Below are positions 15,043-32,938 of a stretch of DNA of 54,972 bases, in pieces. Source of the DNA: Patescibacteria group bacterium (GTDB lineage Bacteria > Patescibacteriota > Minisyncoccia > Phycocordibacterales > JBHPGB01); contig JBHPGB010000004.1 of NCBI GenBank assembly GCA_042571085.1, positions 1 through 54,972 of the forward strand. Reading direction: 5' to 3'. A program made the translations under genes and the position numbers. Below the pieces are notes generated by a model. That model was given only the letters and a program-made list of their open reading frames with translations. It was not told where the DNA came from and did no database searches. Positions within the stretch are counted from its first letter, which is position 1. Each line of letters starts with the position of its first letter.

Positions 15043-15059
15043 TGATTGGAGATAATAAT

Positions 15060-16551: not shown

Positions 16552-16563
16552 ATAAAAATTAAA

Positions 16564-17367
16564 ATGATAAATAAAACTACTTCATGGGAGTATAAAGAAA
16601 GTCCAAATAAAAGAATCGGTAGAAAAAAACCATGCACCGTTTTAGTTATGCATTACACAGCCGGAGGAAACACAAATCAAATTATTAAATATTTCCAGCA
16701 ACCTGACGGAGTGTCGGCTCATTTTGTCGTTGGAAGAGATGGAAGAGTTGTACAAATGGTTAAGCTTGAAGACGTAGCATGGCACGCTGGTAACTCTGTT
16801 TGGAAGGGAGAAAAATGGGTTAATTATTTTTCAGTTGGTATTGAAATTAGCAACTGGGGGCCTTTAAAGAAGAAGGGGGAAACTTACTATTGTTGGCCCA
16901 ACAATTACAACACAATACTTAATAAAGAAGTTTTTGAAGATGATTCGGGTAATTTTTGGGAAGCTTACCCCTCTAAACAAATTAATGCTGTTATTGAGCT
17001 CTGTAAATCTATACTAGAGATCATACCAGAAATAACCTTGGAAAATGTAGTTGGCCATGAACACATTTCTCCTGGCAGAAAAACAGACCCTGGTCCCGCT
17101 TTTCCATGGGATAAAGTAAAAAAAGGATTAACAAAAGAGGTTCAAAAGGAAGAATTTGTCACAAAACCACAAACTTCGCCCCACGAAAGTTTAGAAAAAG
17201 ACAATGTTGTAACAGAGAATGTTATTGAGGAAAAAGATTTAAGTGATAAAGATTTTACTGAGCAGGTAAAAGCAAGATCTGGTAACAGAAAAGGCGGAGG
17301 GGTTTTCTTAGAACTAATAAGTCGGATTGTTCAAATTATAAGCAAGGGATTGAATAAACAAAAATAA
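16564..17367 (+). CDS. N-acetylmuramoyl-L-alanine amidase (AmpD/Amidase_2 family)
   Basis: VMHYTAG, VSAHFVVGRDG, AWHAG, SVGIEISN, VGHEHISPGRKTDPGPAFPW. Confidence 0.92.
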   Translation: MINKTTSWEYKESPNKRIGRKKPCTVLVMHYTAGGNTNQIIKYFQQPDGVSAHFVVGRDGRVVQMVKLEDVAWHAGNSVWKGEKWVNYFSVGIEISNWGPLKKKGETYYCWPNNYNTILNKEVFEDDSGNFWEAYPSKQINAVIELCKSILEIIPEITLENVVGHEHISPGRKTDPGPAFPWDKVKKGLTKEVQKEEFVTKPQTSPHESLEKDNVVTENVIEEKDLSDKDFTEQVKARSGNRKGGGVFLELISRIVQIISKGLNKQK

Positions 17368-18242
17368 TGAAAACTAAAGTTTGTAAAAAAAGAACATTTA
17401 AAAAACCAGATTATTATTTATACATAGACGATTCTGGTAGTAGGCATCCTGATAAACAAAACCTTACTGATCGTGATGACGGAATGGATAATTTTGCTTT
17501 AGGTGGTGTTTTGGTTGCCCAAAAGGATAAAAAAAATATCAAACAAAAATATGAGGCTTTCTGTGATAAATGGAACATAGATTATCCTCTACATTCATCG
17601 GAAATCCGTGGCATGAGAAATAATTTTTCTTGGTTAGAAGAGGGGGTGAAGAGGCGGGAAAATTTTTTAGAAGAGCTCGAAGAATTTTTGATATCTTTGC
17701 CTGTTGTTGGTTTTGCTAGTGTAATTTACAGACCTGGTTATAATGAGCGATACGAAAAAAAGTATGGTGATAACCGTTGGATGATGTGCAAAACAGCTTA
17801 TACTATTTTGATTGAGAGAGTTGCTAAACAATTAAAAAAAACAAATAGTACCATGCTTGTTCGTTTTGAAGAAGTTGGCAGAAGAGAAGATCGAGCAATA
17901 AGTGAATATGCTAAAGATATGAAAAATATTGGGCACCCTTTTGATGCAAATGCTTCTGCCAAATATAATGCCATTACACAAAATGAGTATAAGAAAATTC
18001 TTTTGGGTGCTCCAAAAAGAAAGAAAAAATGGAATTTGTTTATTCAGATTGCAGATTTATATTTATACCCTATGGTAAAAAGAAGATATGATCAAGAGTA
18101 CAGGCCGTGGAAAATGTTTTATAAACACGGTAAGGTTATTGATGCATATTTACCAGATGGGTGTTTAGAGGTTGAGGGTATTAAATATAGTTGTTTTGAG
18201 AATTTTAATATACCAGATAGTAAAAAACCTAAGCAAGCTTAG
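17367..18242 (+). CDS. DUF3800-family protein (RNase H-like acidic motifs)
   Basis: LYIDDSG, FALGGV, LHSSEI and IQIADL match the DUF3800 pattern (IDESG...QxAD). Confidence 0.8.
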   Translation: MKTKVCKKRTFKKPDYYLYIDDSGSRHPDKQNLTDRDDGMDNFALGGVLVAQKDKKNIKQKYEAFCDKWNIDYPLHSSEIRGMRNNFSWLEEGVKRRENFLEELEEFLISLPVVGFASVIYRPGYNERYEKKYGDNRWMMCKTAYTILIERVAKQLKKTNSTMLVRFEEVGRREDRAISEYAKDMKNIGHPFDANASAKYNAITQNEYKKILLGAPKRKKKWNLFIQIADLYLYPMVKRRYDQEYRPWKMFYKHGKVIDAYLPDGCLEVEGIKYSCFENFNIPDSKKPKQA

Positions 18243-18287
18243 GTTTTTTACCGGCTCGCAACGCGAACCCCGGGGCTTATGCCCAAT
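18222..18287 (-). ncRNA. Predicted ~66-nt structured sRNA convergent with the DUF3800 gene
   Basis: Minus-strand promoter TTGCAC (18322-18317)-17 nt-TATATT (18299-18294), two small hairpins, then terminator cctaagc-tt-gcttagg-U6 overlapping the DUF3800 stop. Confidence 0.5.
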
Positions 18288-18336
18288 ATCTATAATATAC
18301 ACAAAGTGTTGATTGAGTGCAAGTAGATTGTGGAAA

Positions 18337-18406
18337 ACTTTTTTTTGTAAAGGGGTAAAATTAATTTTAATATTAAAATTAATTTTACCCCTTTACAAAA
18401 AAAAGT
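18337..18406. repeat. Perfect 70-bp palindrome with no loop
   Basis: acttttttttgtaaaggggtaaaattaattttaat followed by its exact reverse complement. Confidence 0.85.
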
Positions 18407-18523
18407 CAATTTTTGCCGCTTGGTATAATATCAAGTTTCAGTGCCTTGTTGTGGGGTGCTCTGTAAAATAATTTAGCTTACCAAAAAATCGCCCAAAGGG
18501 CGATTTTTTGGTAAAATCTGGAT

Positions 18524-19273
18524 ATGACAAAAATAATTATCAATGCTGATGATTTTGGATATAGCAGAAGTATAAATGAGGGAATTCTGGAGGCTATTAA
18601 AAACGGGGTAGTGAGCAGTACGTCAATTATGGTTTATGGAAAAGCTGCAAGCGAAGCTGTTAAACTTAAAAATATTGATAATATTTCAGTCGGACTTCAT
18701 TTGCATATGGAAGATGTGGTATTAAGTCTCCAAGAGGAATTTGATAAACAAGTAAAGATGTTTATCAAATTGTTTGGTAGGGCTCCTGATCATGTTGATG
18801 TTCACAAGCCCCGATCATCAAATATGGAACAAATTAGCCCGCTTCTTGAAAGATATTCAGAAGAACACCAGATTCCATCTAGAGAACTAAATCATGCAAA
18901 ATCAATCAAGGGTTTTTTTGGTATTAATGTAAACGGTGGTCAAGATGTGGATTCTGAAAGAGTCAGTGTTGAGAACCTTCTGCATATTCTAGAAAATTTG
19001 GATGAAGGCGTTAGTGAGATTATGACTCATGTTGGTTATTCAGACGATGAGCTTCGGAGCATGAGTTCGTATAATGATACAAGAGAACTAGAGCTTAAGA
19101 CACTAACGGATGAGAAGGTTATCAAATATTTTAATAAAACAGACAACTTAAAATTAGTGAATTGGAAAACAGCATTCCCACATGGTGTGAGTTCGGAGCT
19201 CGGTGTTTGTGGTGATAATGATTTGAGTGCGGAACAATCAAAGAAAAAAGTGAAGAATTTGGAAAATGACTAA
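18524..19273 (+). CDS. ChbG/YdjC-family carbohydrate deacetylase
   Basis: IINADDFG, STSIMV, VGLHLH, PDHVDVH, EIMTHVG, RELEL..L. Confidence 0.88.
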   Translation: MTKIIINADDFGYSRSINEGILEAIKNGVVSSTSIMVYGKAASEAVKLKNIDNISVGLHLHMEDVVLSLQEEFDKQVKMFIKLFGRAPDHVDVHKPRSSNMEQISPLLERYSEEHQIPSRELNHAKSIKGFFGINVNGGQDVDSERVSVENLLHILENLDEGVSEIMTHVGYSDDELRSMSSYNDTRELELKTLTDEKVIKYFNKTDNLKLVNWKTAFPHGVSSELGVCGDNDLSAEQSKKKVKNLEND

Positions 19274-19808
19274 CGAAAAAATTAATTATTCTGTAAAGAA
19301 AAGTAAACGGGCGAAGCGGATGCGGTTGGCGGTGCATTGTGACGGGAGGGTGATTGTAACAGTGCCAACGGGAATGGGGGATTCACTTGTGCAGAAATTC
19401 ATAAATGAAAAGATGGGTTGGATTTCAAAAAAGATTAAGTTTTTTGAACAATATGATTTGCGTTTGGTGAGACCATATTCAAAAACTGATTATTTAAAAC
19501 ATAAAGACGTCGCAAAGACTTTGGTTGAAAAAAGAATAGAGTATTTTAATAAGAATTGTGAGTTTTCTTTTAATAGAATTTCTGTAAAAAATCAAAAAAC
19601 AAGATGGGGGAGTTGTTCAGGAAAAAAGAATTTAAATTTCAATTATAAAATAGTTTTTTTGTCACAAAAATTGCAGGATTACATTATCGTGCATGAATTA
19701 TGTCATTTGAAGGAAATGAATCATTCACGCAAATTTTGGATACAAGTAGAGAGTATCCTTCCAGATTATAAGGCAATGCGAAAAGATTTAAAAAACCACG
19801 GACTATAG
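19266..19808 (+). CDS. M48/SprT-like (YgjP/DUF45) metal-dependent hydrolase
   Basis: KTRWGSCS, LNFN, YIIVHELCHLKEMNHSRKFW. Confidence 0.9.
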   Translation: MTNEKINYSVKKSKRAKRMRLAVHCDGRVIVTVPTGMGDSLVQKFINEKMGWISKKIKFFEQYDLRLVRPYSKTDYLKHKDVAKTLVEKRIEYFNKNCEFSFNRISVKNQKTRWGSCSGKKNLNFNYKIVFLSQKLQDYIIVHELCHLKEMNHSRKFWIQVESILPDYKAMRKDLKNHGL

Positions 19809-19878
19809 GTGCACTTTTTAAATCCCGTGATATACTGATTTACATAGGGAATATAAAGCCAACAGGAGGTCAAGAGCC

Positions 19879-20070
19879 ATGTTAATTTCAAAATATGAAG
19901 ATGGGCTCGGGCAATCAGAACTTGAACCCGACACTGGTTTACAAGAAGTTCCTGTTGAACAAAAAGAGAAGAGGGACACTTCTAAAGGAGAAGTGACAAA
20001 CATCTCAAATGTAGATGAGTTTTTAGACAAACAAGAAGAAAAGGATTGTGATAGAGATGGGATTGATTAG
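19879..20070 (+). CDS. Small acidic hypothetical protein
   Basis: AGGAGG SD at 19864-19869, 9 nt before the ATG. Confidence 0.55.
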   Translation: MLISKYEDGLGQSELEPDTGLQEVPVEQKEKRDTSKGEVTNISNVDEFLDKQEEKDCDRDGID

Positions 20071-20275
20071 TACCTACACATTCATGTGACCACAAAAAGG
20101 TCATGGAAAAATCCACCGCATTAGGGCTCCAAGCCTTAGTGCGGTTTTTTACTACAATATTCCACAGATGGATTATAAAAACCTCTGCACAATCGGCTCC
20201 ACGCTATTAAAAACAAAAAATCCCATTCCTCAGCTGAGGAATGGGGGGGTGGTTTAGTTAGGGACTTTTTTTAAC

Positions 20276-20692
20276 TTAAGCTTCAAGCAGCGGAGGCAGG
20301 TATACTTCTATCAGGGTTAAAAAAGTCGAGAGCCTTTTTTCACACAAATCTTCAGAAAATTCACCCGCGTCGGTGAGTTGAGCCACACATCCTATATGCA
20401 TAGGCGTTTGTGACAAGGCAAAACTCATCCACCTTTTGTCGCCGTCCATCATTAGTGGATCTTCGTTAATATTTTTCAGTATGTTTGTAATACGTTCTTC
20501 TTTTTTCTCATCTCCAAAGATAACAAGCCAAAATCCAGTTGATGCGGATCCGTCCAATACATAAGCCTCTCCTTTAAAGACGTGTCCTGAAACAGTGTGT
20601 ATAAACCCGATGCTACCATGAGGACAAATATCTGAATTTATGTCGTGTTTACGCAGTATATTTGCCAATGTTTTAAGGTCACTCATGCCCAT
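20276..20692 (-). CDS. Hypothetical protein
   Basis: 138-aa ORF with GGGAG SD. Hairpin cccattcctcag/ctgaggaatggg (20222-20245) lies downstream. Confidence 0.6.
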   Translation of the reverse strand: MGMSDLKTLANILRKHDINSDICPHGSIGFIHTVSGHVFKGEAYVLDGSASTGFWLVIFGDEKKEERITNILKNINEDPLMMDGDKRWMSFALSQTPMHIGCVAQLTDAGEFSEDLCEKRLSTFLTLIEVYLPPLLEA

Positions 20693-20837
20693 TGTTTGCT
20701 CCCGTTATGTGATTCGTGGTAACTTCTCTGGCTCATTTATATCACCTTAAGATTTTTTGTAAAGGAATTTATTTACAATACTTTCCACCACTTTTTTTAT
20801 CTTTCTGCCCAAACCATTTTGTTGGCGTACTTGAGAA

Positions 20838-20980
20838 TACCCCGTCTGCTTGCAGCGGGGATTACAAGTGCAATAAACTGATATGCCCGGAGGGCACACT
20901 TTACCAAAAATTACCCCCGGTTCGCAGCAGGCTTCAATCGAGAATATATCATAGTTTGCTGCGAGGTAATTTATATTTTC
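20838..20980 (+). mobile_element. ~140-bp palindrome-rich element (IS200/IS605/REP-like non-autonomous), copy A
   Basis: ccccgtctgcttgcagcgggg, tgcccggagggca and aaattacccccgg...gctgcgaggtaattt. Homologous to 27764-27900 in the opposite orientation. Confidence 0.7.
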
Positions 20981-21134
20981 TTTATCTTTTATTTATCAGG
21001 ACTTCATCATTCATTTGCTATATTTACTCACAGGACAGTTACAGCCAAAAGGATTTGGCAACGGCAAAATGCCTGTGTAATCTACACGGCATTTTTTAGT
21101 TCTTTTTAATTAACAACAACACGGGAGTAATCCA

Positions 21135-21704
21135 ATGAGAAAAACAATTTCGTTTTTAGTCGTACTGGTGAGTCTGTCTGTCTCAACTAGTGCATTTGCA
21201 TTTCAGTATGCATATGCATTTCATGATCCGTTGATGCCGTCGTCGGCTTATCGTATCGATCAAGACCACAAGGAGTACAATTCAGCCTATGGTAAATACC
21301 ACATAGGTGAAGACAGGAACAGAATCAACGTACAAGAGTGTGGTGACGATGCTGGTGATGCTGTTTACTCTATAGCAAACGGACGGGTAATGTATGCGCA
21401 AAATGCTGGTCCGAGCTGGGGGAACGTTATTATCGTCCGTCATATACTACATGACATGACACGTGTTCACTCGATGTATGCGCATCTTCAGGATTCGTAT
21501 GCGTCTGTTGGGCAAGAGGTTTCCGTTGGACAGCAGATTGGTTCTATTGGTGATGCAGGGGGATATTATCCGTGTGCCCATCTGCATTTCGAGTTACGGA
21601 CTGATAGAACCCTTGAGAAAATCCCTGGTTCTGGGTATGCATATTGGGGTGATCCAATATGGAATAGCCACACAGATCCATCAGACTTCATCTCAAGTCA
21701 CTAA
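21135..21704 (+). CDS. Secreted M23-family peptidase
   Basis: Signal peptide, H-G-D (HIGED), YAHL, IGSIG, HLHFELR. GGGAG SD. Confidence 0.88.
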   Translation: MRKTISFLVVLVSLSVSTSAFAFQYAYAFHDPLMPSSAYRIDQDHKEYNSAYGKYHIGEDRNRINVQECGDDAGDAVYSIANGRVMYAQNAGPSWGNVIIVRHILHDMTRVHSMYAHLQDSYASVGQEVSVGQQIGSIGDAGGYYPCAHLHFELRTDRTLEKIPGSGYAYWGDPIWNSHTDPSDFISSH

Positions 21705-21812
21705 GGTAGTGTTGTAGGTTGTGCTTACTCCATCTCTTGCTAAAAGAGGTGGAGTTTTTATATAAACATTAACTCATTTATCAAAATAAATAAAAATGAT
21801 ACACTTCTTCAT

Positions 21813-22472
21813 ATGAATACACAAAATAAAAAAATAATTACAATATTTAAAATTGTACTGGTGATTTCTATATTGTTTCTTGTATACATCACAGCTTCTT
21901 TATATCTAATCTCAAATGAAGAACAAATACCTGATATTAAAAAACAAACAATTGAAACCGAGACAGTTGTTGAGCGGCACCCGTTAGATATAAAAAGAGA
22001 TAAAGAAATTATTTATGATGGCGACCTTTCCAAGATTGAGTGGGTTACATACGTGGACGACATGAATGGCATAAGTTTTTCACATCCATCAGATTTTACG
22101 ATTGCAATAGATGAAATAAAGCATGAATATGAAAATGGAAAAAAATGGCACTATACTTTTTTTGATAGTGATGTGCGTAAACAAAGAACAAGATTTAGTA
22201 TAAATATTAATCCTGATGGTATTGGCCCATTTTTTATAGACAAACGATACTTTATAGAAAAGAAAAATGATGGAAAAATTGCAATCTCATCAGTGATTGA
22301 TGCGACAGACCAACAGATACTAAATGACGAAATTATTTGGTCATATGCAAAATTAGATGATGATGAAAATAAATTAGATTTTCATTTTATATATGAAATA
22401 AATGGAGAGTTAGACAATGTTGATTATGATGCGATGTTTACTGAGATATTAGAATCTATTGAGATTAAATAA
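21813..22472 (+). CDS. Membrane-anchored PsbP-like surface protein
   Basis: N-terminal TM, then WVTYVDDMNGISFSHP motif. Confidence 0.65.
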   Translation: MNTQNKKIITIFKIVLVISILFLVYITASLYLISNEEQIPDIKKQTIETETVVERHPLDIKRDKEIIYDGDLSKIEWVTYVDDMNGISFSHPSDFTIAIDEIKHEYENGKKWHYTFFDSDVRKQRTRFSININPDGIGPFFIDKRYFIEKKNDGKIAISSVIDATDQQILNDEIIWSYAKLDDDENKLDFHFIYEINGELDNVDYDAMFTEILESIEIK

Positions 22473-22480
22473 TTTTAGTC

Positions 22481-22532
22481 AAAAAACTGCCAATCTAGGC
22501 AGTTTTTTGTTATTATTTATGGATTATGAAAA
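22481..22532 (+). repeat. 52-bp terminator-plus-start module, copy 1
   Basis: aaaaaactgccaatctaggcagttttttgttattatttatggattATGAAAA, 49/52 identical to 24013-24064. Confidence 0.8.
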
Positions 22533-23437
22533 CAAATAAATTATTTAACCTTAATGCAATGGCACGTGCTTTGTGTGAGAAAAAGGTTACGAAAATAGAA
22601 TTTAGAGTGTATGCAGTAGTATTTATACTTTTTTTGGTAAGTTCCTTTTTTACCAGTCCAGATGATTACGCGTCACCTTTTGTTTTTTATGCATATATTG
22701 TGTCCATGATTATATTTACATTAGCATTACTGAGTATTGCATATGTGGTAAATAAAAAAGGAGATAATAAAGATTTTTGGTATAGATTTATTAGTTTAGA
22801 TATGACAATAACTATAATTTTCATTGCTGCGATCTTTGGTATTGCATTGTTTGCCCCGATTTTTATAGACCCAGCGCAACCAATTGTGTTTGGGTGGACA
22901 TTCCTTATTTTTACAAACTCATTTAGTATTGTTTATTTGTACCTCATGTATAAATATATGCGCTGTGTATCCAGTGGGTGTAAAAATTGTGCCGAAGAAA
23001 AAATTAGCACAAAAAGAAAGTTCAAAATTTCTGACAAACTGGACTTATCTAAAGTTAGGAGATTTGCGAAGCTTTATGCTGTTGTCTATGCACTTTTTGT
23101 ATTATTGCCAACCCTTGTTTCTCTTGTAATTTCATCAGAGAATATAGTACAAGCCATTTTGCTTAATCTGATTCCGCTGAGCATTGCTTTTATCGGCCTC
23201 GCTGCTTTTGGTTGGCAAAAGAAGATCTTTGGAAGACTATTTTGGAAACTGTTTTTTATTTATTTCTTTGTAATGAACGTGTTATTTGCAATACCGGCTC
23301 AAATATTTGTACAGGATACTCATCTGATAGAAATTGTACTGATATTTGTTCTTATATTAGCTCCGGTATCACTCATACTTTATTTATACGCCTTTGAAGA
23401 TGTGCCCACTAAAAATATAATAGAAGATGAAAAATAA
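22526..23437 (+). CDS. Multi-pass membrane protein
   Basis: About 8 hydrophobic segments in two blocks separated by a Cys/Lys-rich linker. Confidence 0.7.
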   Translation: MKTNKLFNLNAMARALCEKKVTKIEFRVYAVVFILFLVSSFFTSPDDYASPFVFYAYIVSMIIFTLALLSIAYVVNKKGDNKDFWYRFISLDMTITIIFIAAIFGIALFAPIFIDPAQPIVFGWTFLIFTNSFSIVYLYLMYKYMRCVSSGCKNCAEEKISTKRKFKISDKLDLSKVRRFAKLYAVVYALFVLLPTLVSLVISSENIVQAILLNLIPLSIAFIGLAAFGWQKKIFGRLFWKLFFIYFFVMNVLFAIPAQIFVQDTHLIEIVLIFVLILAPVSLILYLYAFEDVPTKNIIEDEK

Positions 23438-23457
23438 ATACATGAACTTCATATCAC

Positions 23458-23718
23458 ATGGATGTAAAAAACAAATCACAAAAGAAAAAAAGTAATACGA
23501 GCGGATGGGATATGGATGTGATTGCCAGTATGCATATCCTTGAAATTACTTTAATTATAGTGTCTGTTCTCGTCGCCTTGGTTTCAGGTCACTATAAATA
23601 TGCCTTTTTTGGGTTGGTTTTGGTGTTAATCTTTTTGGCTCCCACTATTTTGTATTATATAGCAATGAAAACATATCCATCTGTGAAAAGATACTTCAAA
23701 AAAGTAACAAAGAAATAA
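23458..23718 (+). CDS. Small membrane protein
   Basis: Two hydrophobic segments, in operon-like arrangement. Confidence 0.6.
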   Translation: MDVKNKSQKKKSNTSGWDMDVIASMHILEITLIIVSVLVALVSGHYKYAFFGLVLVLIFLAPTILYYIAMKTYPSVKRYFKKVTKK

Positions 23719-23724
23719 AAAATT

Positions 23725-23976
23725 ATGGAAGATTTTATAATTTACATATTTTTATTTATAATTATTTCCGTTGTCATTTTGATTGAGTTTGGGCCTGGTT
23801 TTTTACCAGTTCCAACAAATGAAATGCAAAAGAAAAGCCCAATATTTTTTTGGTTTATTATTATTGTTGGTACGCTTTCTTTTCTTGTGTTTTTGATAAG
23901 TATTTTTGTGGATGTCGGTGGTTTTATAAAAATGATAGATACATTTATAAAAGAAAGCTGCTTTATATGTGATTAA
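23725..23976 (+). CDS. Small membrane protein
   Basis: Two hydrophobic segments. Confidence 0.55.
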   Translation: MEDFIIYIFLFIIISVVILIEFGPGFLPVPTNEMQKKSPIFFWFIIIVGTLSFLVFLISIFVDVGGFIKMIDTFIKESCFICD

Positions 23977-24012
23977 GTAATATGATAATTACACCACTTT
24001 AATTGCGATAAC

Positions 24013-24064
24013 AAAAAACTGCCAATTCAGGCGGTTTTTTGTTATTATTTATGGATTATGAAAA
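24013..24064 (+). repeat. 52-bp terminator-plus-start module, copy 2
   Basis: Near-identical to 22481-22532. Confidence 0.8.
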
Positions 24065-26013
24065 ATATTTCAAATAAATTAATTATAGGAATTTGCGTAG
24101 TTGTTTTAATAAGTATTGGACTTTTGGCAATGGTTTATGGGCAAACAAAAGATCAGCAAAATGATGAAGTTGTTGAGGGTGTGAGTGTTGCTGAAATACA
24201 GTATGTAAAATTAAAAGACTGCCCAGAAAAAACATATGAAGATGATTCTCTGGCATACTCAAACCCGAATTATTTTATGTGTAAGAGCTATTTAACAGAT
24301 GGTGAGTATGTATACTACCATGGTATACGGGCTGTTGCTGCGCCAGATCAGCCTCTGGCACCTAGTTTTATAGCCACATCATCTCCCAACATCCAAGACC
24401 CTAAATTGATGGGAGCGACAATTGTTGAAGGTGTGGATCTTGAAACATTTGAAATCATTTATTTTGACGAATCTTTACCAACAGCACAGCAAAATAATAT
24501 GTATTCTTATGCAAGAGACAAAGATTTTTTATACTGGGAAGGGAAGAGATTTGACGGGGTTGATCCGAATACGTTTTCCATTCTTGGTAGAGGGTTTATA
24601 AAAGACAAGGACTCTGTGTATTATTGGTGGAAAAAACTTGAAGGGTCAGATCCTGAAACTTTTGAATTTTTGTGGAGCGGTTTTGCGCGAGATAAAAATT
24701 TTGTGTATAGAAATAATCCAGAGCCAGAAATATTTGATGGAATTGATCCTGCAACTTTTGAAAAGATTGATGATGCATATTTTAAAGACAAGGACGCTAT
24801 CTATTATCGACAAAAGAAGATTGAAGGTTCTGATCCGGCAACGTTTGAATTCTTGTATGGTTATACAGGAAAAGATTCAGGTAATGCGTATGCTAAGGAT
24901 AAAAATGCAGTATATTATCTCGGAAAAAGGCTTGAGGGGGTTGATTCAGAAACTTTTGAGTTTCTGCCCAATACTTGGAGTAAAGACAAAAACTTTGTAT
25001 ATAGGTATGACGGTGAGCGAGTTGAAGGAATTGACCCGGCAACGTTTGAATTTGTCGATAAAAGTACGCAATACATAAAGGATAAAAACGGCGTTTATTA
25101 TGCTTATGGAGATAATAAAAAAATTGATGATATGGACTCGAGCACATTTAAAGTGTTAAGCGGCGGGTATGTGAAAGATAAAAATTTTGTATGGATTGCC
25201 GTTAGCGGTCGTGACCACGGCATATATTCTCATAAAAAAATAGATGGTGCTGACGCTAATAGTTTTGAAGTGATTGAGCGACAATATGCGCGAGATGCCA
25301 CGACTGTTTATTGTTCTGGTAATGTTATGGATGGGTTTGATTGGGGTAGTGTTGTAATGCTTCAGGATAATTATATTCGCGATAAGAATTTTGTTTTTCA
25401 GGGATGTAATAAGATTGAGGGGGCTGACGCAAAGTCTTTCGAAGTATTGAGTTACAAATACTCAAAGGATGATAACTCAGTGTATTACATGGGGAGTAAA
25501 ATTAATGATGCAGATGCTGGTAGTTTTGAAAAACTTACTTGTAGTTGCTCAAAAGATAAAAATAATATTTACAAAGCTGTTCAGCAAGAATCTGGATCAG
25601 TTATTTTAAAATTCGGCAATTTTGATGTTCCCACATTTCGTATCATAGGTAATTGTAATTTTGCAGATAAAAATGGTGTATATATAACAGAAGGACGTAA
25701 GATTGTTGGTGCTGATCCAAATACTTTTGAATTTCTGGGTGGAAATTATAGTAAAGATGCCTATCGTGCTTATTGGGATTATGAATCAATTGACGGAGTC
25801 GATATTGGAACATTCAGATTTAATGGTGGAAAGTTTGCTAAAGATAAAAATACTGTGTATTACGAAGGAAAAGTATATGATGATGATTTGAGGGCAAGTT
25901 TAGGACAAGTGGAAATATTAGAGGGGATACGATATCCAATAAGTGACACTCTGCCAGGACCGGTTCTTCTTGAGGAAGTTGAAATACAAGAGGTGTATCC
26001 AATCGGGCTTTAA
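24058..26013 (+). CDS. DKNYY-family repeat surface protein
   Basis: N-terminal anchor and many D(P/S)xTFE...Y(A/S)(R/K)DK(N/D)xVY repeats. Confidence 0.9.
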   Translation: MKNISNKLIIGICVVVLISIGLLAMVYGQTKDQQNDEVVEGVSVAEIQYVKLKDCPEKTYEDDSLAYSNPNYFMCKSYLTDGEYVYYHGIRAVAAPDQPLAPSFIATSSPNIQDPKLMGATIVEGVDLETFEIIYFDESLPTAQQNNMYSYARDKDFLYWEGKRFDGVDPNTFSILGRGFIKDKDSVYYWWKKLEGSDPETFEFLWSGFARDKNFVYRNNPEPEIFDGIDPATFEKIDDAYFKDKDAIYYRQKKIEGSDPATFEFLYGYTGKDSGNAYAKDKNAVYYLGKRLEGVDSETFEFLPNTWSKDKNFVYRYDGERVEGIDPATFEFVDKSTQYIKDKNGVYYAYGDNKKIDDMDSSTFKVLSGGYVKDKNFVWIAVSGRDHGIYSHKKIDGADANSFEVIERQYARDATTVYCSGNVMDGFDWGSVVMLQDNYIRDKNFVFQGCNKIEGADAKSFEVLSYKYSKDDNSVYYMGSKINDADAGSFEKLTCSCSKDKNNIYKAVQQESGSVILKFGNFDVPTFRIIGNCNFADKNGVYITEGRKIVGADPNTFEFLGGNYSKDAYRAYWDYESIDGVDIGTFRFNGGKFAKDKNTVYYEGKVYDDDLRASLGQVEILEGIRYPISDTLPGPVLLEEVEIQEVYPIGL

Positions 26014-26019
26014 ATGTGT

Positions 26020-27567
26020 ATGAAAAAAATCTCAAATAAATTAATTTTAGGAATTTTTGTAATCGTTTTAATTCTCGGTGTATTTCCATATGATACCGAT
26101 GAGTCTTATCAGGCCGTGATGGAAAAATATGGCTATGATATTGGCGAACGTACACGTACCGCTGATTGTGAAACTGATGGCGTGAGTGTGGAGCGTGTTC
26201 CATTTGGCACAAGATCAATCCATTGTGATACATCTTGGTTTGTATTATTTAACATATTTCCATTTCAGGGGAAAGGAGATCTAGATGTTGATGAGCCTGT
26301 AAAAGAATTTTGGGAGCAAGATCTTAAGGAAATTATTAAGTTTGACGAGGTAGATTCAAGGGTTGTCAGTGCACCAATCCCCAAAGGTTGGTTTATGCAT
26401 CGTGCGAGTAATCAACATATTATGCTTACACGGTCTAAGGAGTTGTTAGACATTGAAGCAACAGAAGGATATGCCTATGGTGAGCAGATTAATATTGATT
26501 TAATAAAAATCGATATGTCTCCAGAAGAAGGGGTTGCACAAAAAACATATATTGATTTGGATGATGTGCTTGTATTGTCAAAAGAGTGGACTATTTCTTA
26601 CGAGCAAAAGATTCTTAGTGTTGAAAGTGAAGCAGCTGGATTTTCAGGTAAACAATATACAAGGTATCTTTTTGTTGATGATTTTGTATATATTGTTTCG
26701 CTTTATCCACTTGAAACATATGATACTGAGAGCGGTATTTATGTGCGTAATCATGCAGGACTTGATGCGCTTTATAAAGTATCAGATAATTTACTTTTGT
26801 TATACAGTATTCAAAAAAATCCAATGAAATCTTTTAAAGAATTGCGCAATCTCACTCCGGTTAATGAGCTTTTAATGCGCTTTAGTCAGATGGATCTTTT
26901 TTTGAATACACAATTAAGGAATGGGGATATACGCTGGATCAATGAAGATGGTTATAGCATTCTTGTTCCTGGAACTGAATATTTCTTGGCCGTTAATGAA
27001 AAAATAGGTTGTCCAAGATCTGAAGAGTCTGCCACACATATATATGAAAAAGAATTATCTGTTGCTGAAAAAATGTTTCTAGAAAGAGGTTATGTTTTAG
27101 ATAAAAATAATTCATCTTTTGATGAATCTGATGAACGATTATATGATTATGTGCAAACTTATGTAAAAGGAGATGAGCTGTGTGCAGTGATAGTAAATGC
27201 AGAATGCAGTTCGTATGTTGCTGGAATGGATATGGCACATGATTTACGTGTGTCGTGTGGGAACACATTGAAAGAGGCGAGTGATGAACAATTACCTTTT
27301 CTCGAGGCACTTGAGTTTAAAGATACAAATACTGTTGTACGAGTGAGAAAACAAAGCGGTGATTTTTTCCAGCTTGGAGTAAGGGGATTTCGTGGAGGAC
27401 AAACTGCGATTGTAAAAAAAGAAGGTGAGACATATCGCTTGCTACTTATGACACAAGAAGCACCTTACTGCAATTTGATAGAGGAAGAGCAAATTCCTCG
27501 TGAGGTTTTAAGTTCAATCGGAGGAGGGGATTGCTGGACTGATGAGGAATATATAAGAGTTGAATAA
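26020..27567 (+). CDS. Membrane-anchored hypothetical protein
   Basis: N-terminus MKKISNKLILGI is nearly identical to that of the DKNYY protein. ATG at 26020 preferred. Confidence 0.75.
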   Translation: MKKISNKLILGIFVIVLILGVFPYDTDESYQAVMEKYGYDIGERTRTADCETDGVSVERVPFGTRSIHCDTSWFVLFNIFPFQGKGDLDVDEPVKEFWEQDLKEIIKFDEVDSRVVSAPIPKGWFMHRASNQHIMLTRSKELLDIEATEGYAYGEQINIDLIKIDMSPEEGVAQKTYIDLDDVLVLSKEWTISYEQKILSVESEAAGFSGKQYTRYLFVDDFVYIVSLYPLETYDTESGIYVRNHAGLDALYKVSDNLLLLYSIQKNPMKSFKELRNLTPVNELLMRFSQMDLFLNTQLRNGDIRWINEDGYSILVPGTEYFLAVNEKIGCPRSEESATHIYEKELSVAEKMFLERGYVLDKNNSSFDESDERLYDYVQTYVKGDELCAVIVNAECSSYVAGMDMAHDLRVSCGNTLKEASDEQLPFLEALEFKDTNTVVRVRKQSGDFFQLGVRGFRGGQTAIVKKEGETYRLLLMTQEAPYCNLIEEEQIPREVLSSIGGGDCWTDEEYIRVE

Positions 27568-27588
27568 TTTTTTCTTAAAATATATTAA

Positions 27589-28209
27589 TTACTTTGTTCG
27601 TGCGACGTAAGTATTTAGCAGTTGTGTGATTATTGTTGTGATAAAAAGCAGAATAAAAATCTCAAATGGGAATTTAAAGAATGCGATTATAGAAAATAAA
27701 AATAAAAATCCTGTTAAAAATATTTCAAAAGTACGGTAATATTTTTTTAGAAAAATATAAAATAAATTACCCCGCAGCAAGCTACGCGGTATTTCCAATG
27801 AAACTTGCTGCGGACCGGGGGTAATTTTTGCTAAGGAGTGCCCCTCCGGGCACACTCGTTTATTGAGCTTGTTCATCCCCGCTGCAAGCAGACGGGGAGT
27901 GGTCCCCAAGCACGACAATAAAATAAATAAAAAATTAGCAAAAATAAACCATGGTATAAAAGATCCCCAGAAGCCTTTCCATATTACATGCATGGAATGT
28001 TGTCGCGGATTTGTAAGACTGTATTCAAAAGCTCCATTTCTTTCAACCATGTCATAACTCGAATTCATAGATACGAATTCTACAGGAAATCCAAATTGAA
28101 TATCCCTTTCTTGCTCCACAGTGTGCACCATTGTGGGGGCAAATAATGTGCATACCATCGCTATCAATGTAAGTGCGAGTATGTGAAAAGATTGTTTTAT
28201 TGATTTCAT
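27589..28209 (-). CDS. Membrane protein carrying an in-frame palindromic element
   Basis: TM-FGFP-TM N-terminal half. About 45 codons read through element copy B, followed by a further hydrophobic tail. Confidence 0.55.
   Translation of the reverse strand: MKSIKQSFHILALTLIAMVCTLFAPTMVHTVEQERDIQFGFPVEFVSMNSSYDMVERNGAFEYSLTNPRQHSMHVIWKGFWGSFIPWFIFANFLFILLSCLGTTPRLLAAGMNKLNKRVCPEGHSLAKITPGPQQVSLEIPRSLLRGNLFYIFLKKYYRTFEIFLTGFLFLFSIIAFFKFPFEIFILLFITTIITQLLNTYVARTK
27764..27900 (-). mobile_element. ~140-bp palindrome-rich element, copy B
   Basis: Reverse complement aligns with 20838-20980. Includes taccccgcagcaagctacgcggtat. Confidence 0.7.
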
Positions 28210-28215
28210 AAATGT

Positions 28216-28449
28216 TTATTTTTCTAAAGTTTTAAGTAAGTCTAAAGCTTTTTCTTTGTCTTCTATATTAATCAAAAGTCCAACACCACCAGTGGCTGAT
28301 GCTATCCAAGGATACATACCACCAGCGTCGTCCGCAGTGATGAGGCTTGGTATGTCATGTGCTCTTAATAAGCTTTTGCCGGCCTCGGCATCGATTCTAT
28401 TATTATAACTCTGTATTTTTATGTTTTGTTTCATATTAAAATAACACAA
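28216..28449 (-). CDS. DUF2007-like putative signal-transducing small protein
   Basis: YNNRIDAEAGKSLLRAHDIPSLITADDAGG...LLINIEDKEKALDLL. Confidence 0.75.
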   Translation of the reverse strand: MCYFNMKQNIKIQSYNNRIDAEAGKSLLRAHDIPSLITADDAGGMYPWIASATGGVGLLINIEDKEKALDLLKTLEK

Positions 28450-29020
28450 TGCTATTTAGAATATCATCAAATATATTTTGGAAACCCTCAGTGTAGTGGA
28501 TTTTCAGGATAACTTGTGGGTCAAGGGTTTCAATCAAAGTAACAAAATTCATTTCTCCGCCATAGCCACCTCTATATGATATTTGTGCAGCAGGCCTATT
28601 GTCGATATTAATATTTTCAATTTTAGTTTGTGCAAAATCATCTAAATACTGATCTTTTTTATATTGTTCAGTGATTTTATCTATACTTACATCATCTTTG
28701 GGCTGTATAGTCATGCTACTCATTATGCCTATTGAAGACGCCCTTTTCGGATTATTTATGGATAGTGTACTTATTGATATATATTGAGGAGATTCTTCTA
28801 AATACATATTTGATGGATATTTAAACCGATATCCGTATTCTTTATTTTCGTAAGTAAGCCAATTTGAAGTATCTATTTCAGATATGGTATTTTGCTTTAT
28901 TTCTGTATTTTCCGTTCGAACCCCAGTATTGTTGTATAAATAAAAACCAGCGAAAATTATTGCGATTAGAATTACAATTAAAAATAGTTTGAAAAATTTT
29001 GAATTTTTTAGTTTATTCAT
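28436..29020 (-). CDS. Membrane-anchored PsbP-like surface protein
   Basis: N-terminal TM, then NWLTYENKEYGYRFKYP. Confidence 0.7.
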   Translation of the reverse strand: MNKLKNSKFFKLFLIVILIAIIFAGFYLYNNTGVRTENTEIKQNTISEIDTSNWLTYENKEYGYRFKYPSNMYLEESPQYISISTLSINNPKRASSIGIMSSMTIQPKDDVSIDKITEQYKKDQYLDDFAQTKIENINIDNRPAAQISYRGGYGGEMNFVTLIETLDPQVILKIHYTEGFQNIFDDILNSIVLF

Positions 29021-29034
29021 GATCAGAATTAGTT

Positions 29035-29745
29035 TTATTTTTTTTGTATTTGTAGGAAAAGAGAAATTCCAGCAATAAATGCTAGGCTCGCGCGGGCCAA
29101 TAGAAATAAACCAGGGTCGTACATAATACCCATATCCTTATTAGGGTTTACGAACATCCATATAAATATTTCTAGAAAACTTACAAATATAAGAAAACTT
29201 ACAATAAATTTATTTTTTCTATAAACGGTCAATGCAAGGATTGTTATTATGGGTGATAGTGTGAATAAAAATAAATATGGTGTGGCAAATTCAGTAGCAA
29301 ACGGCTGGGCTATTGGAAAATATAAAACTGTTGCAGCAAATGCTATTAGTGAGGCAAAAAAGGCAAAATTTTTAATTTCAATTTTTTCTTCAATACTATT
29401 TTTGGGTGCTCTGTTGATTCTTTGCAATAAATAACTTGAATATAGAAAGCAGGTATATGAAATTATTAATAGTGAAATAAGAAAAGATGCTTGACCTATA
29501 TAGTCAGGTTTTATAATTGCATACAATGCAATTACCAGAGCATGTCCGATTGGTGCAATTAAAAAAAGTTTTGCTGCAATATCTGGACGTTTTTGTACAA
29601 AAAGAATACCAGCAACACACATAAGCCAAAATAGCATTAGCATACTAGAATCTATTTGGCTGATGTACCAAGGATATGAAAGAGCTGTTGAAAAAAGCAT
29701 TAGAATAGCTCCAAACACAGTAAATAAGTAAGTAAATATTTTCAT
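29035..29745 (-). CDS. Multi-pass membrane protein
   Basis: About 8 hydrophobic segments, with an apparent internal duplication of two 4-TM halves. Confidence 0.7.
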   Translation of the reverse strand: MKIFTYLFTVFGAILMLFSTALSYPWYISQIDSSMLMLFWLMCVAGILFVQKRPDIAAKLFLIAPIGHALVIALYAIIKPDYIGQASFLISLLIISYTCFLYSSYLLQRINRAPKNSIEEKIEIKNFAFFASLIAFAATVLYFPIAQPFATEFATPYLFLFTLSPIITILALTVYRKNKFIVSFLIFVSFLEIFIWMFVNPNKDMGIMYDPGLFLLARASLAFIAGISLFLQIQKK

Positions 29746-29778: not shown

Positions 29779-30765
29779 TTACTTTTTGTTTACAAATCCA
29801 CCAACTAATTTTTCTATTTTCTTCACATCTTCCGACCCAAACCATTTTATTTTTTCATTTCGTTTGAACCAGTTTTTTTGCCGCTTGGCGTAGTGCCAGG
29901 TTTCGGTGTTCATTTTTTGCAGAGCTTCCTCTTTGGGGATTTCTCCTTTGATTACTTGAACAATGAATTTGTATTCAAAGCCGAGCTCGTTTATTCTTTT
30001 CCACGAAATGTTTTGCTCACGGAGCTTTTTAACTTCTGCTACAAGACCTTTTTTCACGACTCGGCTTTGCTTCCCTGCATTGCGATTTACAACCAATCGC
30101 TTCGCTCTTGGGTAAATCGGGAACATCATTTGCTCATTTCTGCGCGCGATTTTTTCTATAAGAGTTTCCTTATCTAATTCCAGCCCAATCCACAACACGT
30201 CGTATTTACCTGAGTCTCCGGCACTCAAATTAGGAACAGCGCCGAGCGCGCTGGCAATTTCTATTGCGCGGATGAGTCGGCGAGGATTATGTGGATCAAT
30301 ATCTTCTGCGCGGCGCGGGTCGAGCGTTTTGAGCTCGGCAAAAAGCTCGGGCGCCGACTTTTTCTCAAGCCGAGTGCGCAATTTTGGATTTGGTGGTACT
30401 TCAGGTAAATCGCTACTGCCAAGGAGTGCGTCAATATAAAAACCAGTGCCACCTGCGATGATTGGCAATTTTCCACGCTTTATAATATCTCTCAATGCTT
30501 TTTCTCCTTTCTTTTTAAATTGCGCGGCGGTGAATGGTCGACGTGGGCTAGCGACATCAAGCAGGTGATGGGGAACTCCTTTCATTTCTTGTTTGGTTAT
30601 TTTTCCAGTTCCAATATCAAGATCGCGGTACACTTGTCGTGAATCGGCCGAGATTACCTCACCATCAAATTTCTTGGCAATTTCCACTGCCAAATCACTT
30701 TTGCCAGAGGATGTAGTGCCGACAATAACTATGATTTTATGTTTTTGTTTTTCCATTTTGGACAT
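29779..30765 (-). CDS. miaA: tRNA dimethylallyltransferase, with a ~23-aa insertion
   Basis: GTTSSGKS, ISADSRQVY, IGTGK, PHHLLD, GGTGFY, RRLIRAIE, YAKRQKNWF. Confidence 0.95.
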   Translation of the reverse strand: MSKMEKQKHKIIVIVGTTSSGKSDLAVEIAKKFDGEVISADSRQVYRDLDIGTGKITKQEMKGVPHHLLDVASPRRPFTAAQFKKKGEKALRDIIKRGKLPIIAGGTGFYIDALLGSSDLPEVPPNPKLRTRLEKKSAPELFAELKTLDPRRAEDIDPHNPRRLIRAIEIASALGAVPNLSAGDSGKYDVLWIGLELDKETLIEKIARRNEQMMFPIYPRAKRLVVNRNAGKQSRVVKKGLVAEVKKLREQNISWKRINELGFEYKFIVQVIKGEIPKEEALQKMNTETWHYAKRQKNWFKRNEKIKWFGSEDVKKIEKLVGGFVNKK

Positions 30766-30806
30766 GGTATTATTGATACTACATTAAAAACTAACCAATT
30801 AAAACT

Positions 30807-31421
30807 ATGTGTGAATGTAATAATAATTGTGGCGACTTCATATTTAATGATATTCGTACTCCAATTGTAGGTACTAAAGTACCAGATATGGAACTCGAAG
30901 CTTTTCAAGATGAAGACGTTAAAAAAATAAAACTATCAGATTATAAAGGAAAGTGGGCAATTCTTTTCTTTTATCCAGCAGACTTTACTTTTATTTGTCC
31001 TACAGAGCTTGGGGAAATGGCAGATATGTATGACGAGTTTAAGAAGGAAGATACGGAGGTGCTTTCAGTAAGTACAGATACGGTATTTGTACACAAGGCA
31101 TGGCATGATGAATCTGAAACTATAAAGAAGATTAAATTCCCAATGGTAGCAGATCCAACAGGAAATCTTTCTCGCGCAATGGGTGTGTATTTGGAAGATG
31201 AAGGAGTGGCACTTCGCGGAACATTTGTAATCAACCCAGAAGGGGAGATAGTGCTTGCAGAAGTGAACGATAATAGTATTGGAAGAAGCGCAAAAGAACT
31301 TATGCGAAAATTGAGAGCAGCGAAGTTTGTTAATGAGCACTCAGGTATGGTTTGCCCAGCGAGCTGGGAGGAAGGCGATGATACTTTGGAGCCAGGTCTC
31401 GATCTAGTAGGAAAAATCTAA
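30807..31421 (+). CDS. ahpC: 2-Cys peroxiredoxin (AhpC)
   Basis: FYPADFTFICPTE, LRGTFVINPEG, VCPASW. Confidence 0.93.
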   Translation: MCECNNNCGDFIFNDIRTPIVGTKVPDMELEAFQDEDVKKIKLSDYKGKWAILFFYPADFTFICPTELGEMADMYDEFKKEDTEVLSVSTDTVFVHKAWHDESETIKKIKFPMVADPTGNLSRAMGVYLEDEGVALRGTFVINPEGEIVLAEVNDNSIGRSAKELMRKLRAAKFVNEHSGMVCPASWEEGDDTLEPGLDLVGKI

Positions 31422-31475
31422 AAACAGAAATTAAAGAAACCGGCGTCTCACGACGCCGGTTTTTTGGTGAAAAAC

Positions 31476-31793
31476 TCACCAAAGACAATATTTCCTTTTC
31501 TCTAATTTTTCACCACGTTTGCGATGCCTTGGTATCACAAAAATTGTTACAGAGCGGTCCAGTTGTTTCAGGTCTGTGACTTGCTCCGTAGATAACATCT
31601 TAGAATTCAATCTTTCCATCTCACGTTTTTCCCATTCAAGACACCTGGTAAAAAGTTCGGAAGGGGAACCGTGAAGATTAGCTCTGCAATCACGTGTGTC
31701 TATACCAGTGTCCCAGTTTTCAGGTGGTGGATCTGTTAGATCCAAAGGGTTTTCAGGGTCTATCTTTCTATTAAATGGAAATCCGAGGCTCAT
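31476..31793 (-). CDS. Hypothetical protein
   Basis: 105-aa ORF with AAGGAG SD. Confidence 0.55.
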   Translation of the reverse strand: MSLGFPFNRKIDPENPLDLTDPPPENWDTGIDTRDCRANLHGSPSELFTRCLEWEKREMERLNSKMLSTEQVTDLKQLDRSVTIFVIPRHRKRGEKLEKRKYCLW

Positions 31794-31934
31794 GTCTTTT
31801 CTCCTTTATGAGCAATAAATTAGAATACATCTAATTTCAAAGTAACATTTTGTAAAAATATTGCAATTAGTTTTTTGACCTGATTATTTTTTTGTGTAAT
31901 ATGAAGCGCAGGGACTCAAAAAAGGACATATGAA

Positions 31935-32165
31935 ATGAAATACTATGTGCTGCAATTATTCATTGGTGGTGGGATACTATACTATGTTGGTCATAAAGAT
32001 AGTGAAGTTTTTACATCACCTCAACCCACAACAGGCAAAACTTCAGATGGGTTTTTTACAACAAGACACGCTGCCGATGATGTAAAAAAAATTCTAGACA
32101 GACTCATAAATGAGGAGGCTGTAAAAAGCCTTTCTGAAGCAAATGTGATTATGTGCCACTTGTAA
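31935..32165 (+). CDS. Hypothetical protein
   Basis: 76-aa ORF with AGGA SD and a downstream hairpin at ~32185-32215. Confidence 0.5.
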   Translation: MKYYVLQLFIGGGILYYVGHKDSEVFTSPQPTTGKTSDGFFTTRHAADDVKKILDRLINEEAVKSLSEANVIMCHL

Positions 32166-32266
32166 TTCAATAGGTCATATTATAGGCGGGGAAATATAAA
32201 AATATCCCCGCTTTTTTCTTTGACAAAAAGTATATAGAGTGATAATGTGTCTATCGGAAGTTTTCA

Positions 32267-32938
32267 TTGAAAGTAAGTTTTTTTGATATGGAGAGAGCTA
32301 TGTTATTGGACGAGAAATACAAGGAATTGGTGAAATTGATCGGCACAAATTGGCGAGATTTTCTTAGGTTCACAGAGTGTGTGCCTTTAGAAAAACTTGA
32401 TTCCAAAATACTCCTAGAAATTTTGAAAAATATACAATCGAATACTTTTTCAAACACTCCTATAAATACTTTTATCGGCATTTCTATACTTCTTTGTAAG
32501 ATGCCAAGAAAGAGTTTTGACAAGGAGGTTTTGCTAGGTTTTTTCAGTGAGTCAAGTATGCGCAAGGTTGTTTCTGCGTTGCTTTTCAGACACTTTTCGG
32601 AAGAGCTCGATTTCAAACTTTTGTGTACTTTAATAACATTTTCTGATTATTTGTTTTACGTTGAGACTTGTGATCTTTTGTATAAAAAACCAGCCACTTT
32701 TTTTGAGTATGAGGAATTGATTGAATTTTGGCTATGTGATAATCCAAAAATTAAACATATTTCTGAAGTATTGATAAAAAAACATTTTAATAAGCGATTT
32801 CAAAAGGAGGCACCTTCTGAAGAGACGCAGTGTCAAGCTATAAGAAAAAGGAAACACCAGAAGGTAATGAGTGATGAAGTCTTCACTCCAAAAGAAAGTG
32901 TTGATTTAGGTGTATTGTTAAAAAAGTTTGCGGGTTGA
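32267..32938 (+). CDS. Hypothetical helical protein
   Basis: 223-aa ORF with TTGACA-16-GATAAT promoter at 32219-32246. Start uncertain. Confidence 0.55.
   Translation: MKVSFFDMERAMLLDEKYKELVKLIGTNWRDFLRFTECVPLEKLDSKILLEILKNIQSNTFSNTPINTFIGISILLCKMPRKSFDKEVLLGFFSESSMRKVVSALLFRHFSEELDFKLLCTLITFSDYLFYVETCDLLYKKPATFFEYEELIEFWLCDNPKIKHISEVLIKKHFNKRFQKEAPSEETQCQAIRKRKHQKVMSDEVFTPKESVDLGVLLKKFAG

Follow-up and report, generated by a model that had tools for sequence, protein, structure and literature searches.

Inverted repeats around a surface-protein gene block of a Patescibacteria bacterium are probably relics of a gene-less IS200/IS605-type element

The window analysed here is a stretch of 54,972 nucleotides from a Patescibacteria group bacterium (assembly GCA_042571085.1, contig JBHPGB010000004.1), corresponding to contig C4 of a genome (G000) of 637 kb in 21 contigs, with 38% G+C and an estimated completeness of 94%. 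It contains two inverted copies, A and B, of a palindromic repeat, one at either side of a 6.8-kb block of surface-protein genes, which the original prediction for this DNA regarded as a possibly invertible or mobilisable segment. The repeats are very probably independent, old insertions of a non-autonomous element of the IS200/IS605 type, a palindrome-associated transposable element (PATE), and not the arms of a switch. What resembles a phase-variation switch would then be made up of remnants of gene-less IS200-type transposons, a family with a wide, if patchy, distribution in the Patescibacteria. A literature search on the subject returned no paper mentioning Patescibacteria. Other genomes, contigs and loci are designated below by G, C and L numbers.

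Copy A, recognised as a 152-nt non-autonomous IS200/IS605-type element from BLAST, MAFFT, folding and a family alignment, occupies positions 20823–20974 of the + strand, while the 156-nt copy B occupies positions 27762–27917 of the − strand. The inverted pair is real and located where it had been predicted, with the two copies about 82% identical; the coordinates first proposed fall short, the true ends lying about 20 nt further outward. Queried with BLAST against its own genome, copy A finds copy B on the opposite strand (27762–27897, 82% identity, E 1.3e-31), a third copy (C1:143–281, 81%) and a 22-nt partial match (C3:50656–50677). The genome-wide count suggested with the prediction gives three full copies and one 50-nt short form in 637 kb. 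The third, copy C (C1:143–301, −), sits between what we take, by eye, to be the end of a ComEC-like gene and the probable terminator of the ribosomal protein L28 gene; in the short form (C3:50649–50698, −) the left hairpin is fused to the last right-end bases. A MAFFT alignment of the element copies comprises 181 columns with a mean column identity of 87%. Our copies are 13–18% diverged from each other, the longest perfect stretch shared by copies A and B is 23 nt, and indels are present.

The element begins with TGG or TGT directly after a TTT(A/G)T pentanucleotide and ends in TTTAT. Directly 5' of copy A, a TTTGT pentanucleotide (20818–20822, +) occupies the target, or left cleavage-site, position, as placed by a 60-copy family alignment and the sequence; in most family members this position is TTTAT. 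It is followed by the guide AATA (20836–20839, +), the left imperfect palindrome CCCCG-T-CTGCTTGCAG-CGGGG (20840–20860, +), the P3 hairpin (20884–20896, +) and a 3' hairpin terminating in GGTAATTTAT (20907–20972, +). In copy B, the target pentanucleotide TTTAT is at 27918–27922 and the left palindrome at 27877–27897, both on the − strand, and the right end of the element, AAATA-CCGCG-T-AGCTTGCT-GCGGGG-TAATTTAT, is a degenerate right palindrome. The three hairpins originally named are found in both copies. Palindromes are thus present near both termini on the same strand, the left hairpin being clear in our copies and the right one degenerate, though recognisable in copy B.

As judged from the sequence, copy B is an exact 156-nt (52-codon) insertion immediately after TTTAT in a conserved membrane-protein gene. 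This gene (27589–28209, −) codes for a small membrane protein of 206 amino acids, in which copy B forms a 52-residue in-frame insert that the reading frame crosses without a stop codon. Two homologues of 157 and 156 amino acids (57% and 52% identical over the whole query) are without exactly the element-encoded stretch. In the homologue DNA the empty site, at which TTTAT occurs once, reads ...TTA TTT ATT TTA T/AT TAT ATT TTT CTA, and the filled site in the window reads ...TTA TTT ATT TTA T/TG TCG ... GGT AAT TTA T/TT TAT ATT TTT CTA, with slashes at the boundaries; that is, ...ATTTTAT/ATTATATT for the empty site and ...ATTTTAT/TGTCG...GGTAATTTAT/TTTATATT for the filled one. Copy B occupies a loop-coding part of the gene and has survived there because its 156 nt contain no stop codon. 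Its filled and empty sites, together with the multi-copy relatives described below, are signs of mobility, although our genome itself shows only old events.

In Rickettsia palindromic elements and other in-frame miniature inverted-repeat transposable elements, a palindromic repeat of 100–150 nt is likewise found in frame and read through as extra residues. Copy B and a 60-nt insert in a gene of G013 are also in frame and translated, but the sequence family is unrelated, the IS200 ancestry can be identified here, and most copies are intergenic. The G013 insert (L010:1496–1545; G013:C2:18799–18848) is a 'terminal-only' form that adds 20 residues between ...GSNF and IAGKGD... of what is, by eye, presumably a MurC-like ligase. 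Tiny genomes tolerate such elements in coding genes, and annotated 'proteins' can therefore hold transposon-derived loops.

The first hairpin and its left flank recur, with compensatory changes, in other families of the same order. A covariance model (R1) of this 50-nt left module identifies it in 45 of 401 genomes of the order; among 400 genomes from the remainder of the phylum, only 6 have it. Some genomes carry from 12 to at least 14 copies: seven left-module copies in G339 score equally (72 bits), and G137 and G162 have at least 14 copies each. Many copies are found at contig ends, as expected because repeats break assemblies. The contexts of the copies vary, from in-frame positions in coding genes to sites after terminators and in divergent promoters, with most of them intergenic.

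Full-length copies in the relatives measure 160–200 nt and share one common architecture. The 5' start is TTTAT/TGG..., followed by stem P2 around AGAATA and the hairpin CCCCG-T-CNGC-TT-GCNG-CGGGG; the 5' domain continues with hairpin P3 and then CCAA as the closing strand. The 3' part is a long stem bearing TAATA and a second copy of the same hairpin, which contains either a bulged T or a 19-nt insert replacing this T, and the element ends in AAACTTTAT. Both hairpins, which are alike and imperfect, lie on one strand in direct orientation with AATA in front of each, and TTAT is present at both boundaries, the left one located 17 nt upstream. Where the boundaries differ, the guides differ as well, with a few exceptions: G380 has TTAC at both boundaries and AATG at both guides, and G245 has TTAA at the left boundary and the guide AATT. 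Among 60 aligned copies of the hairpin, 98.2% of the cells are paired, with double changes in all eight of the eight pairs; none of 500 shuffles reaches this pairing, and slid controls are 40–64% paired. With RNAalifold, each of these stems (the closing stem, P2, the hairpin and P3) is recovered and shows compensatory changes, and our own copies fit.

Several details of the family were seen in passing. The consensus 3' domain has three CGAGG motifs, two of them within the 19-nt hairpin insert and the third in the long stem, on its 3' strand; each can pair with a single upstream GCCTCG, so that alternative folds are possible. An extra insert of about 60–80 nt (GACCTAAATTTCGTGACTGAAAGGAACTAGAAATTGGAAGT...) inside P3 in L019, L011 (G022) and L026/L076 (G233) has the appearance of another small element inserted into the first one. 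In head-to-tail copies (L096:1100–1260), the terminal TTTAT (or TTCAT) of one copy is the target of the next, a single TTTAT being shared. In G380 (C2; L057:1900–3950), two direct copies flank about 1.6 kb with three small paralogous secreted-protein genes; the widely spaced hairpin pairs seen in this genome proved to be these two copies.

The right end connects the family to bona fide transposons. Right ends of real IS200 elements from the same order consist of (A/G)ATA, the hairpin CCCCG-T-CNGC..GCNG-CGGGG and TAGTT(T/C)AT; the shared hairpin followed by TA(G)TT(T/C)AT is present in the IS200 elements of G291, G039, G332, G320, G336, G368 and G268. The stem of the G320 right end agrees in every letter with the stem of copies A and B, the 19-nt hairpin insert of the gene-less family also occurs in the IS200 right ends of G291 and G039, and the right end of our own copies, ...GCGGGG-TAATTTAT, corresponds to the short right-end type of real IS200 elements. 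Since the first hairpin of our copies, with its bulged T and the preceding AATA, and their terminal sequence agree with these IS200 right ends, we regard the repeats as gene-less IS200-type derivatives, and the resemblance to subterminal hairpins of HUH (IS200/IS605) transposons that had been remarked upon holds, with the same hairpin and terminal TA(G/A)TTTAT at real IS200 right ends. IS200-type tnpA genes are present in 31 of the 401 genomes of the order; the TnpA proteins of G291 and G336, the two scanned, contain 151–155 amino acids and score 100–120 bits against PF01797. The complete genome G336 has five near-identical IS200 copies with sharp boundaries. When 185,579 species genomes were scanned for the exact pattern of the right hairpin plus the 19-nt insert, 21 loci were recovered, with tnpA adjacent at only one, and no transposase is located beside the element at eight loci examined. 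Downstream of a tnpA gene in G320 (L101), a gene-less element directly follows a full IS200.

The proposed organisation of the element would be a left end with an imperfect hairpin containing a bulged T, preceded by the guide AATA and with the cleavage or target site TTAT 17 nt upstream, then a structured middle, and finally a right end with a second, similar hairpin and TAATTTAT. By analogy with IS608, the Y1 (HUH) transposase TnpA of an IS200 element would act in trans, excising the top strand and pasting it 3' of TTTAT. In IS608 of Helicobacter pylori, the cleavage sites are read by the four nucleotides 5' of each hairpin foot; the left site CL is located 19 nt upstream and outside the insertion sequence, the right site CR is inside, 10 nt past the hairpin, and the hairpins have an extrahelical T (PMC3201880). 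Features common to the family and IS608 are subterminal hairpins that are imperfect, carry an extrahelical T and lie on one strand, together with a putative 4-nt guide 5' of each foot. The left cleavage site would be outside the element, at 17 nt here as against 19 nt in IS608, and the right one a few nucleotides past the right hairpin, at 8 nt in the short type as against 10 nt in IS608; insertion would likewise be 3' of a fixed tetranucleotide. The family differs in that the element contains neither tnpA nor tnpB, in that the target is TTAT instead of TTAC, and in that both putative guides are AATA and both putative cleavage sites TTAT.

Gene-less IS200/IS605 derivatives have been described as PATEs in Haloquadratum walsbyi, where 'terminal-only' versions of about 52 bp arise from deletion between the two palindromes (PMC3119063). 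Like PATEs, the elements described here have no terminal inverted repeats, have near-terminal palindromes matching those of transposase-bearing IS200/IS605 elements, are too short to encode a transposase (152–156 nt here, 160–200 nt in the relatives), have heterogeneous copies and include terminal-only forms of about 50–60 nt (our short form in C3:50649–50698 and the G013 insert). Unlike PATEs, they form a new sequence family that is bacterial (Patescibacteria) and not haloarchaeal, their partners are of the IS200 type, with tnpA only and no TnpB in 20 host genomes, the 5' domain is a conserved, covarying three-way junction, and several in-frame copies in genes are tolerated.

A number of observations weigh against a transposon origin of this kind. 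The left ends of real IS200 elements are different, those of G336 having TTTA at the guide position and TTAA, TTAG or ATAT as targets, and no autonomous element was found that bears both the left and right modules of the family. Our genome, 94% complete, contains no cognate IS200-type tnpA but only two genes resembling those of RAYTs (REP-associated tyrosine transposases, REP being the repetitive extragenic palindromic sequences), and a Y1 gene also went undetected in the high-copy genomes G162 and G136. Multi-copy insertion sequences are often missing from metagenome-assembled genomes, and the lack of a cognate tnpA in G000 bears on present activity, not on ancestry. Pairing between guide and boundary is broken in L095, L058 and the right end of L041. 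As the element itself also ends in TTTAT, a 5-bp target duplication would give the same sequence as insertion 3' of TTTAT. Finally, the 5' three-way-junction domain is strongly conserved and more elaborate than IS608-type ends need, which leaves room for an additional role that may be at the RNA or the DNA level. Even so, relics of gene-less IS200-type elements remain the reading we favour, and our own copies are most likely immobile, because there is no cognate tnpA, the copies have diverged by 13–18% and their right hairpins are degenerate.

That the repeats are instead mobile structured RNA genes, either guide scaffolds like omega-RNA or regulatory small RNAs, and no transposon ends at all, we consider highly unlikely. 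All the stems of the 5' domain covary and tolerate G-U pairs, and the folds are more stable than those of shuffled sequences (z −3.5 to −5.4). They are so on both strands about equally, however, which speaks against a transcript as the functional form, and neither our own copies nor the canonical copies of the relatives match any Rfam family at gathering or permissive thresholds. The TnpB-type nuclease domain PF07282 is absent from all 20 element-bearing genomes scanned, with positive controls, and the transcriptional context is inconsistent, the copies being in frame, after terminators or in divergent promoters. Repeats of the REP/REPIN type (REPINs being REP doublets), mobilised by the RAYT-like (TnpA-REP) genes of the same genome, have a low probability as well, only slightly greater than that of an RNA gene. 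The genome has two RAYT-like Y1 genes (window 8449–9090 and C8:16197–16478), RAYTs and the TnpA proteins of IS200 are related HUH enzymes, and both systems would share Y1-related chemistry, by analogy, and have GC-rich hairpins in an AT-rich genome. Each RAYT-like gene is nevertheless accompanied by a distinct palindrome of its own, ACTTGGCGCTCSGAGCGCCAAGT for the first and CCCAAGACGGTCTTGGG for the second; the hairpin and terminal sequence of the element match IS200 right ends and not these palindromes; and the element measures 150–200 nt with two unlike ends, where a REP would be a palindrome of 20–40 nt or a doublet thereof. The RAYT at 8449–9090, proposed as the enzyme acting in trans, is thus not a convincing candidate, having a different palindrome at its flanks.

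If the inverted copies recombined, the 6.8-kb block would flip, exchanging promoters or the carboxy-terminus of the 206-residue protein in a form of phase variation. In its favour, there is a true inverted pair around a block of surface-protein genes on the + strand, with neighbours on the − strand; this strand pattern, part of the original argument, is correct between the copies and for the immediate neighbours, but further left the genes at 16564–19808 are again on the + strand. All else makes inversion extremely improbable. In the homologous 157-residue gene the two flanks of copy B adjoin each other, and since they form one gene there is no inversion breakpoint in copy B. A relative without the element (GCA_042568055.1) has the same gene order and orientation: its contig has, one after another, genes for proteins of 239 amino acids (+, 80% identical to window 29745–29038, −), 157 amino acids (+) and 115 amino acids (+), followed by 83 amino acids (−, 90% identical to 23725–23973, +), 86 amino acids (−, 76% identical to 23458–23715, +) and 167 amino acids (−, 50% identical to 22526–23002, +). 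The convergent layout of the genes for 236 and 206 amino acids with respect to those for 83, 86 and 303 amino acids is the same in relative and window, and the covariance model finds no element in the 20-kb stretch of the relative. The synteny comparison proposed as a check therefore shows an element-less relative colinear with the window in the same orientation.

Within the block the GC skew is +0.12 to +0.30, as in other + strand genes and in keeping with long residence on that strand, while for the − strand genes at 28–31 kb it is about 0.02. Contigs from a source-like sediment run, at a depth of 2–5×, span 20585–21034 and 27392–27939 exactly and in the assembled orientation only; at that depth they contain no strand-changing joints at the elements, so that the search for both orientations reveals the assembled junctions alone. 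The only strand-changing joint at an element, in metagenome run X2 (introduced below), stems from copy C, elsewhere in the genome. Furthermore, the arms are only 82% identical, with indels, no recombinase or invertase has a Pfam match among the scanned open reading frames of 19266–29745, and inverted copies of a strand-specific single-stranded DNA transposon would be unable to act together as a composite. The invertible segment is not supported by these results and is contradicted by the flanks of copy B; two independent insertions probably account for the pair.

While the block does not appear to invert, it is contained in a segment that varies between strains. Run X2, a tidal-flat metagenome, contains the same species. 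X2 contigs cover window positions 1416–20796 and differ from them at about 20 places outside a single replaced stretch of about 540 nt (537 nt at 6770–7308 are replaced in X2 by 75 other letters), and positions 31437–33013 show zero differences. On a single X2 contig, with a depth of 114, position 20807 is joined directly to position 29836; the nine letters at the joint are those of window 20799–20807, after a T run one shorter. The 9,028-bp segment 20808–29835 is therefore present here and absent in a near-identical strain. It holds copy A, the + strand block, copy B with its gene, a PsbP_2 gene and a gene for 236 amino acids. The suggestion of a mobilisable segment survives only in altered form: the block is part of a strain-variable segment, but this ends 1.9 kb past copy B and is bounded by direct repeats, not by the inverted pair. 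These are two copies of the 13-nt sequence CCCAAACCATTTT, the only two in the genome: the left one (20808–20820, +) abuts the target pentanucleotide of copy A, and the right one (29836–29848, +) is in the 3' end of miaA, where it contains the codons for KWFG on the − strand.

The miaA gene (29779–30765, −) codes for isopentenyl pyrophosphate (IPP) transferase, and its present 3' end (29779–29835) came with the 9-kb segment. Beyond the other junction, 20747–20807 (−) is a relic of a MiaA carboxy-terminal tail, intact and used in X2, while here an additional T in the run 20792–20798 shifts its frame. In X2, miaA continues into 20807–20747 and, by hand translation, ends in QKDKKVVESIVNKFLYKKS and a stop codon, which aligns without gaps to the window tail SEDVKKIEKLVGGFVNKK, also followed by a stop, with 7 of 18 residues identical. 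At the nucleotide level, relic and present tail show no similarity above that of shuffles outside the 13-nt core; we consider the tails homologous because of the ungapped 18-residue protein match and the use of the relic sequence as the real tail in X2. To the right, X2 and window are 93% identical over 29836–31465 and identical beyond; on the left, near-identity persists as far as the junction itself. Most simply, the lineage of this strain would have acquired about 10.6 kb from a diverged donor, with a homologous right join and an abrupt left one. The abrupt junction coincides with the left boundary of copy A (CCCAAACCATTTTGT/TGGCG), and the empty site in X2, CCCAAACCATTTTAT, is a perfect element target; in the window, position 20821 is G in place of A. 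With three full copies in 637 kb, the odds of one lying by chance within a few bases (0–2 nt) of the junction are estimated at about 1e-4. Copy A lies at the outer edge of a 9-kb surface-protein cluster that this strain has either gained or kept at the 3' end of miaA.

How the segment arrived can be explained in several ways. It might be an integrative genomic island that entered site-specifically at the miaA 3' end, with the 13-nt repeats as attachment (att) sites and the position of copy A unrelated; this is unlikely, though not remote. The repeat flanks exactly the segment missing in X2, and miaA receives a new tail from the segment, as is typical of islands located at the 3' ends of genes. 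Against it, the segment open reading frames scanned contain no integrase or recombinase Pfam match, many of the genes are found in synteny on the chromosome of a distant relative, the 1.6-kb tract of 93% identity at the right suggests that a diverged donor took part in homologous recombination, and the proximity of copy A to the junction would be the rare coincidence estimated above. An integrase-less island whose att core happens to contain the element target remains a candidate, as does an element that was in the miaA tail first and later provided portable homology when the strain recombined with a donor having a similar copy at the end of its cluster. More speculatively, and with a probability lower than that of the site-specific island, an IS200-type TnpA may have joined the left end of copy A, its right end being defective, to TTTAT in the recipient miaA tail, about 9 kb of surface-protein genes following up to the donor miaA, with subsequent homologous resolution in miaA–ahpC. 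One-ended capture of neighbouring genes is known for IS91/ISCR; to our knowledge, it is not known for the IS200/IS605 family. If true, one-ended single-strand capture by an IS200/IS605-type end would be a way of moving gene clusters. In any case, the strains form a pair with and without 9 kb of surface-protein genes, in which a transposon end marks the exact limit of the gained DNA, and this pair offers a testable lead on the exchange of surface-gene clusters in episymbiotic bacteria with few recombination tools.

Concerning the gene content, the M23 peptidase (21135–21704) and the DKNYY protein (24058–26013) are within the block as announced. The PsbP-like protein is not, since the only Pfam PsbP_2 match (28436–29020) lies outside the pair of repeats, although a 219-residue open reading frame inside the block weakly resembles the PsbP_2 protein in a pairwise comparison. 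For the left neighbour of copy A (138 amino acids, 20276–20692), the protein collection contains no homologue. A direct repeat of 53 nt (94% identical), made up of a terminator-like hairpin and a start region, precedes two of the block genes (22480–22532 and 24012–24064). The DKNYY protein and a 517-residue protein have near-identical signal-peptide starts (24057–24110 and 26019–26072, 87% over 54 nt). Such shared starts suggest cassette-like shuffling of surface-protein genes.

The first RAYT-like gene is flanked by the perfect palindrome ACTTGGCGCTCSGAGCGCCAAGT at 8429–8447 and 9093–9111; a third copy is found in frame inside the gene (8915–8933), encoding GLGAPSAKW, and a fourth at G000:C9:10572–10590. 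The second RAYT-like gene has three flanking copies of the hairpin module CCCAAGACGGTCTTGGGACTGTGGATAAC within G000:C8:15900–16900.

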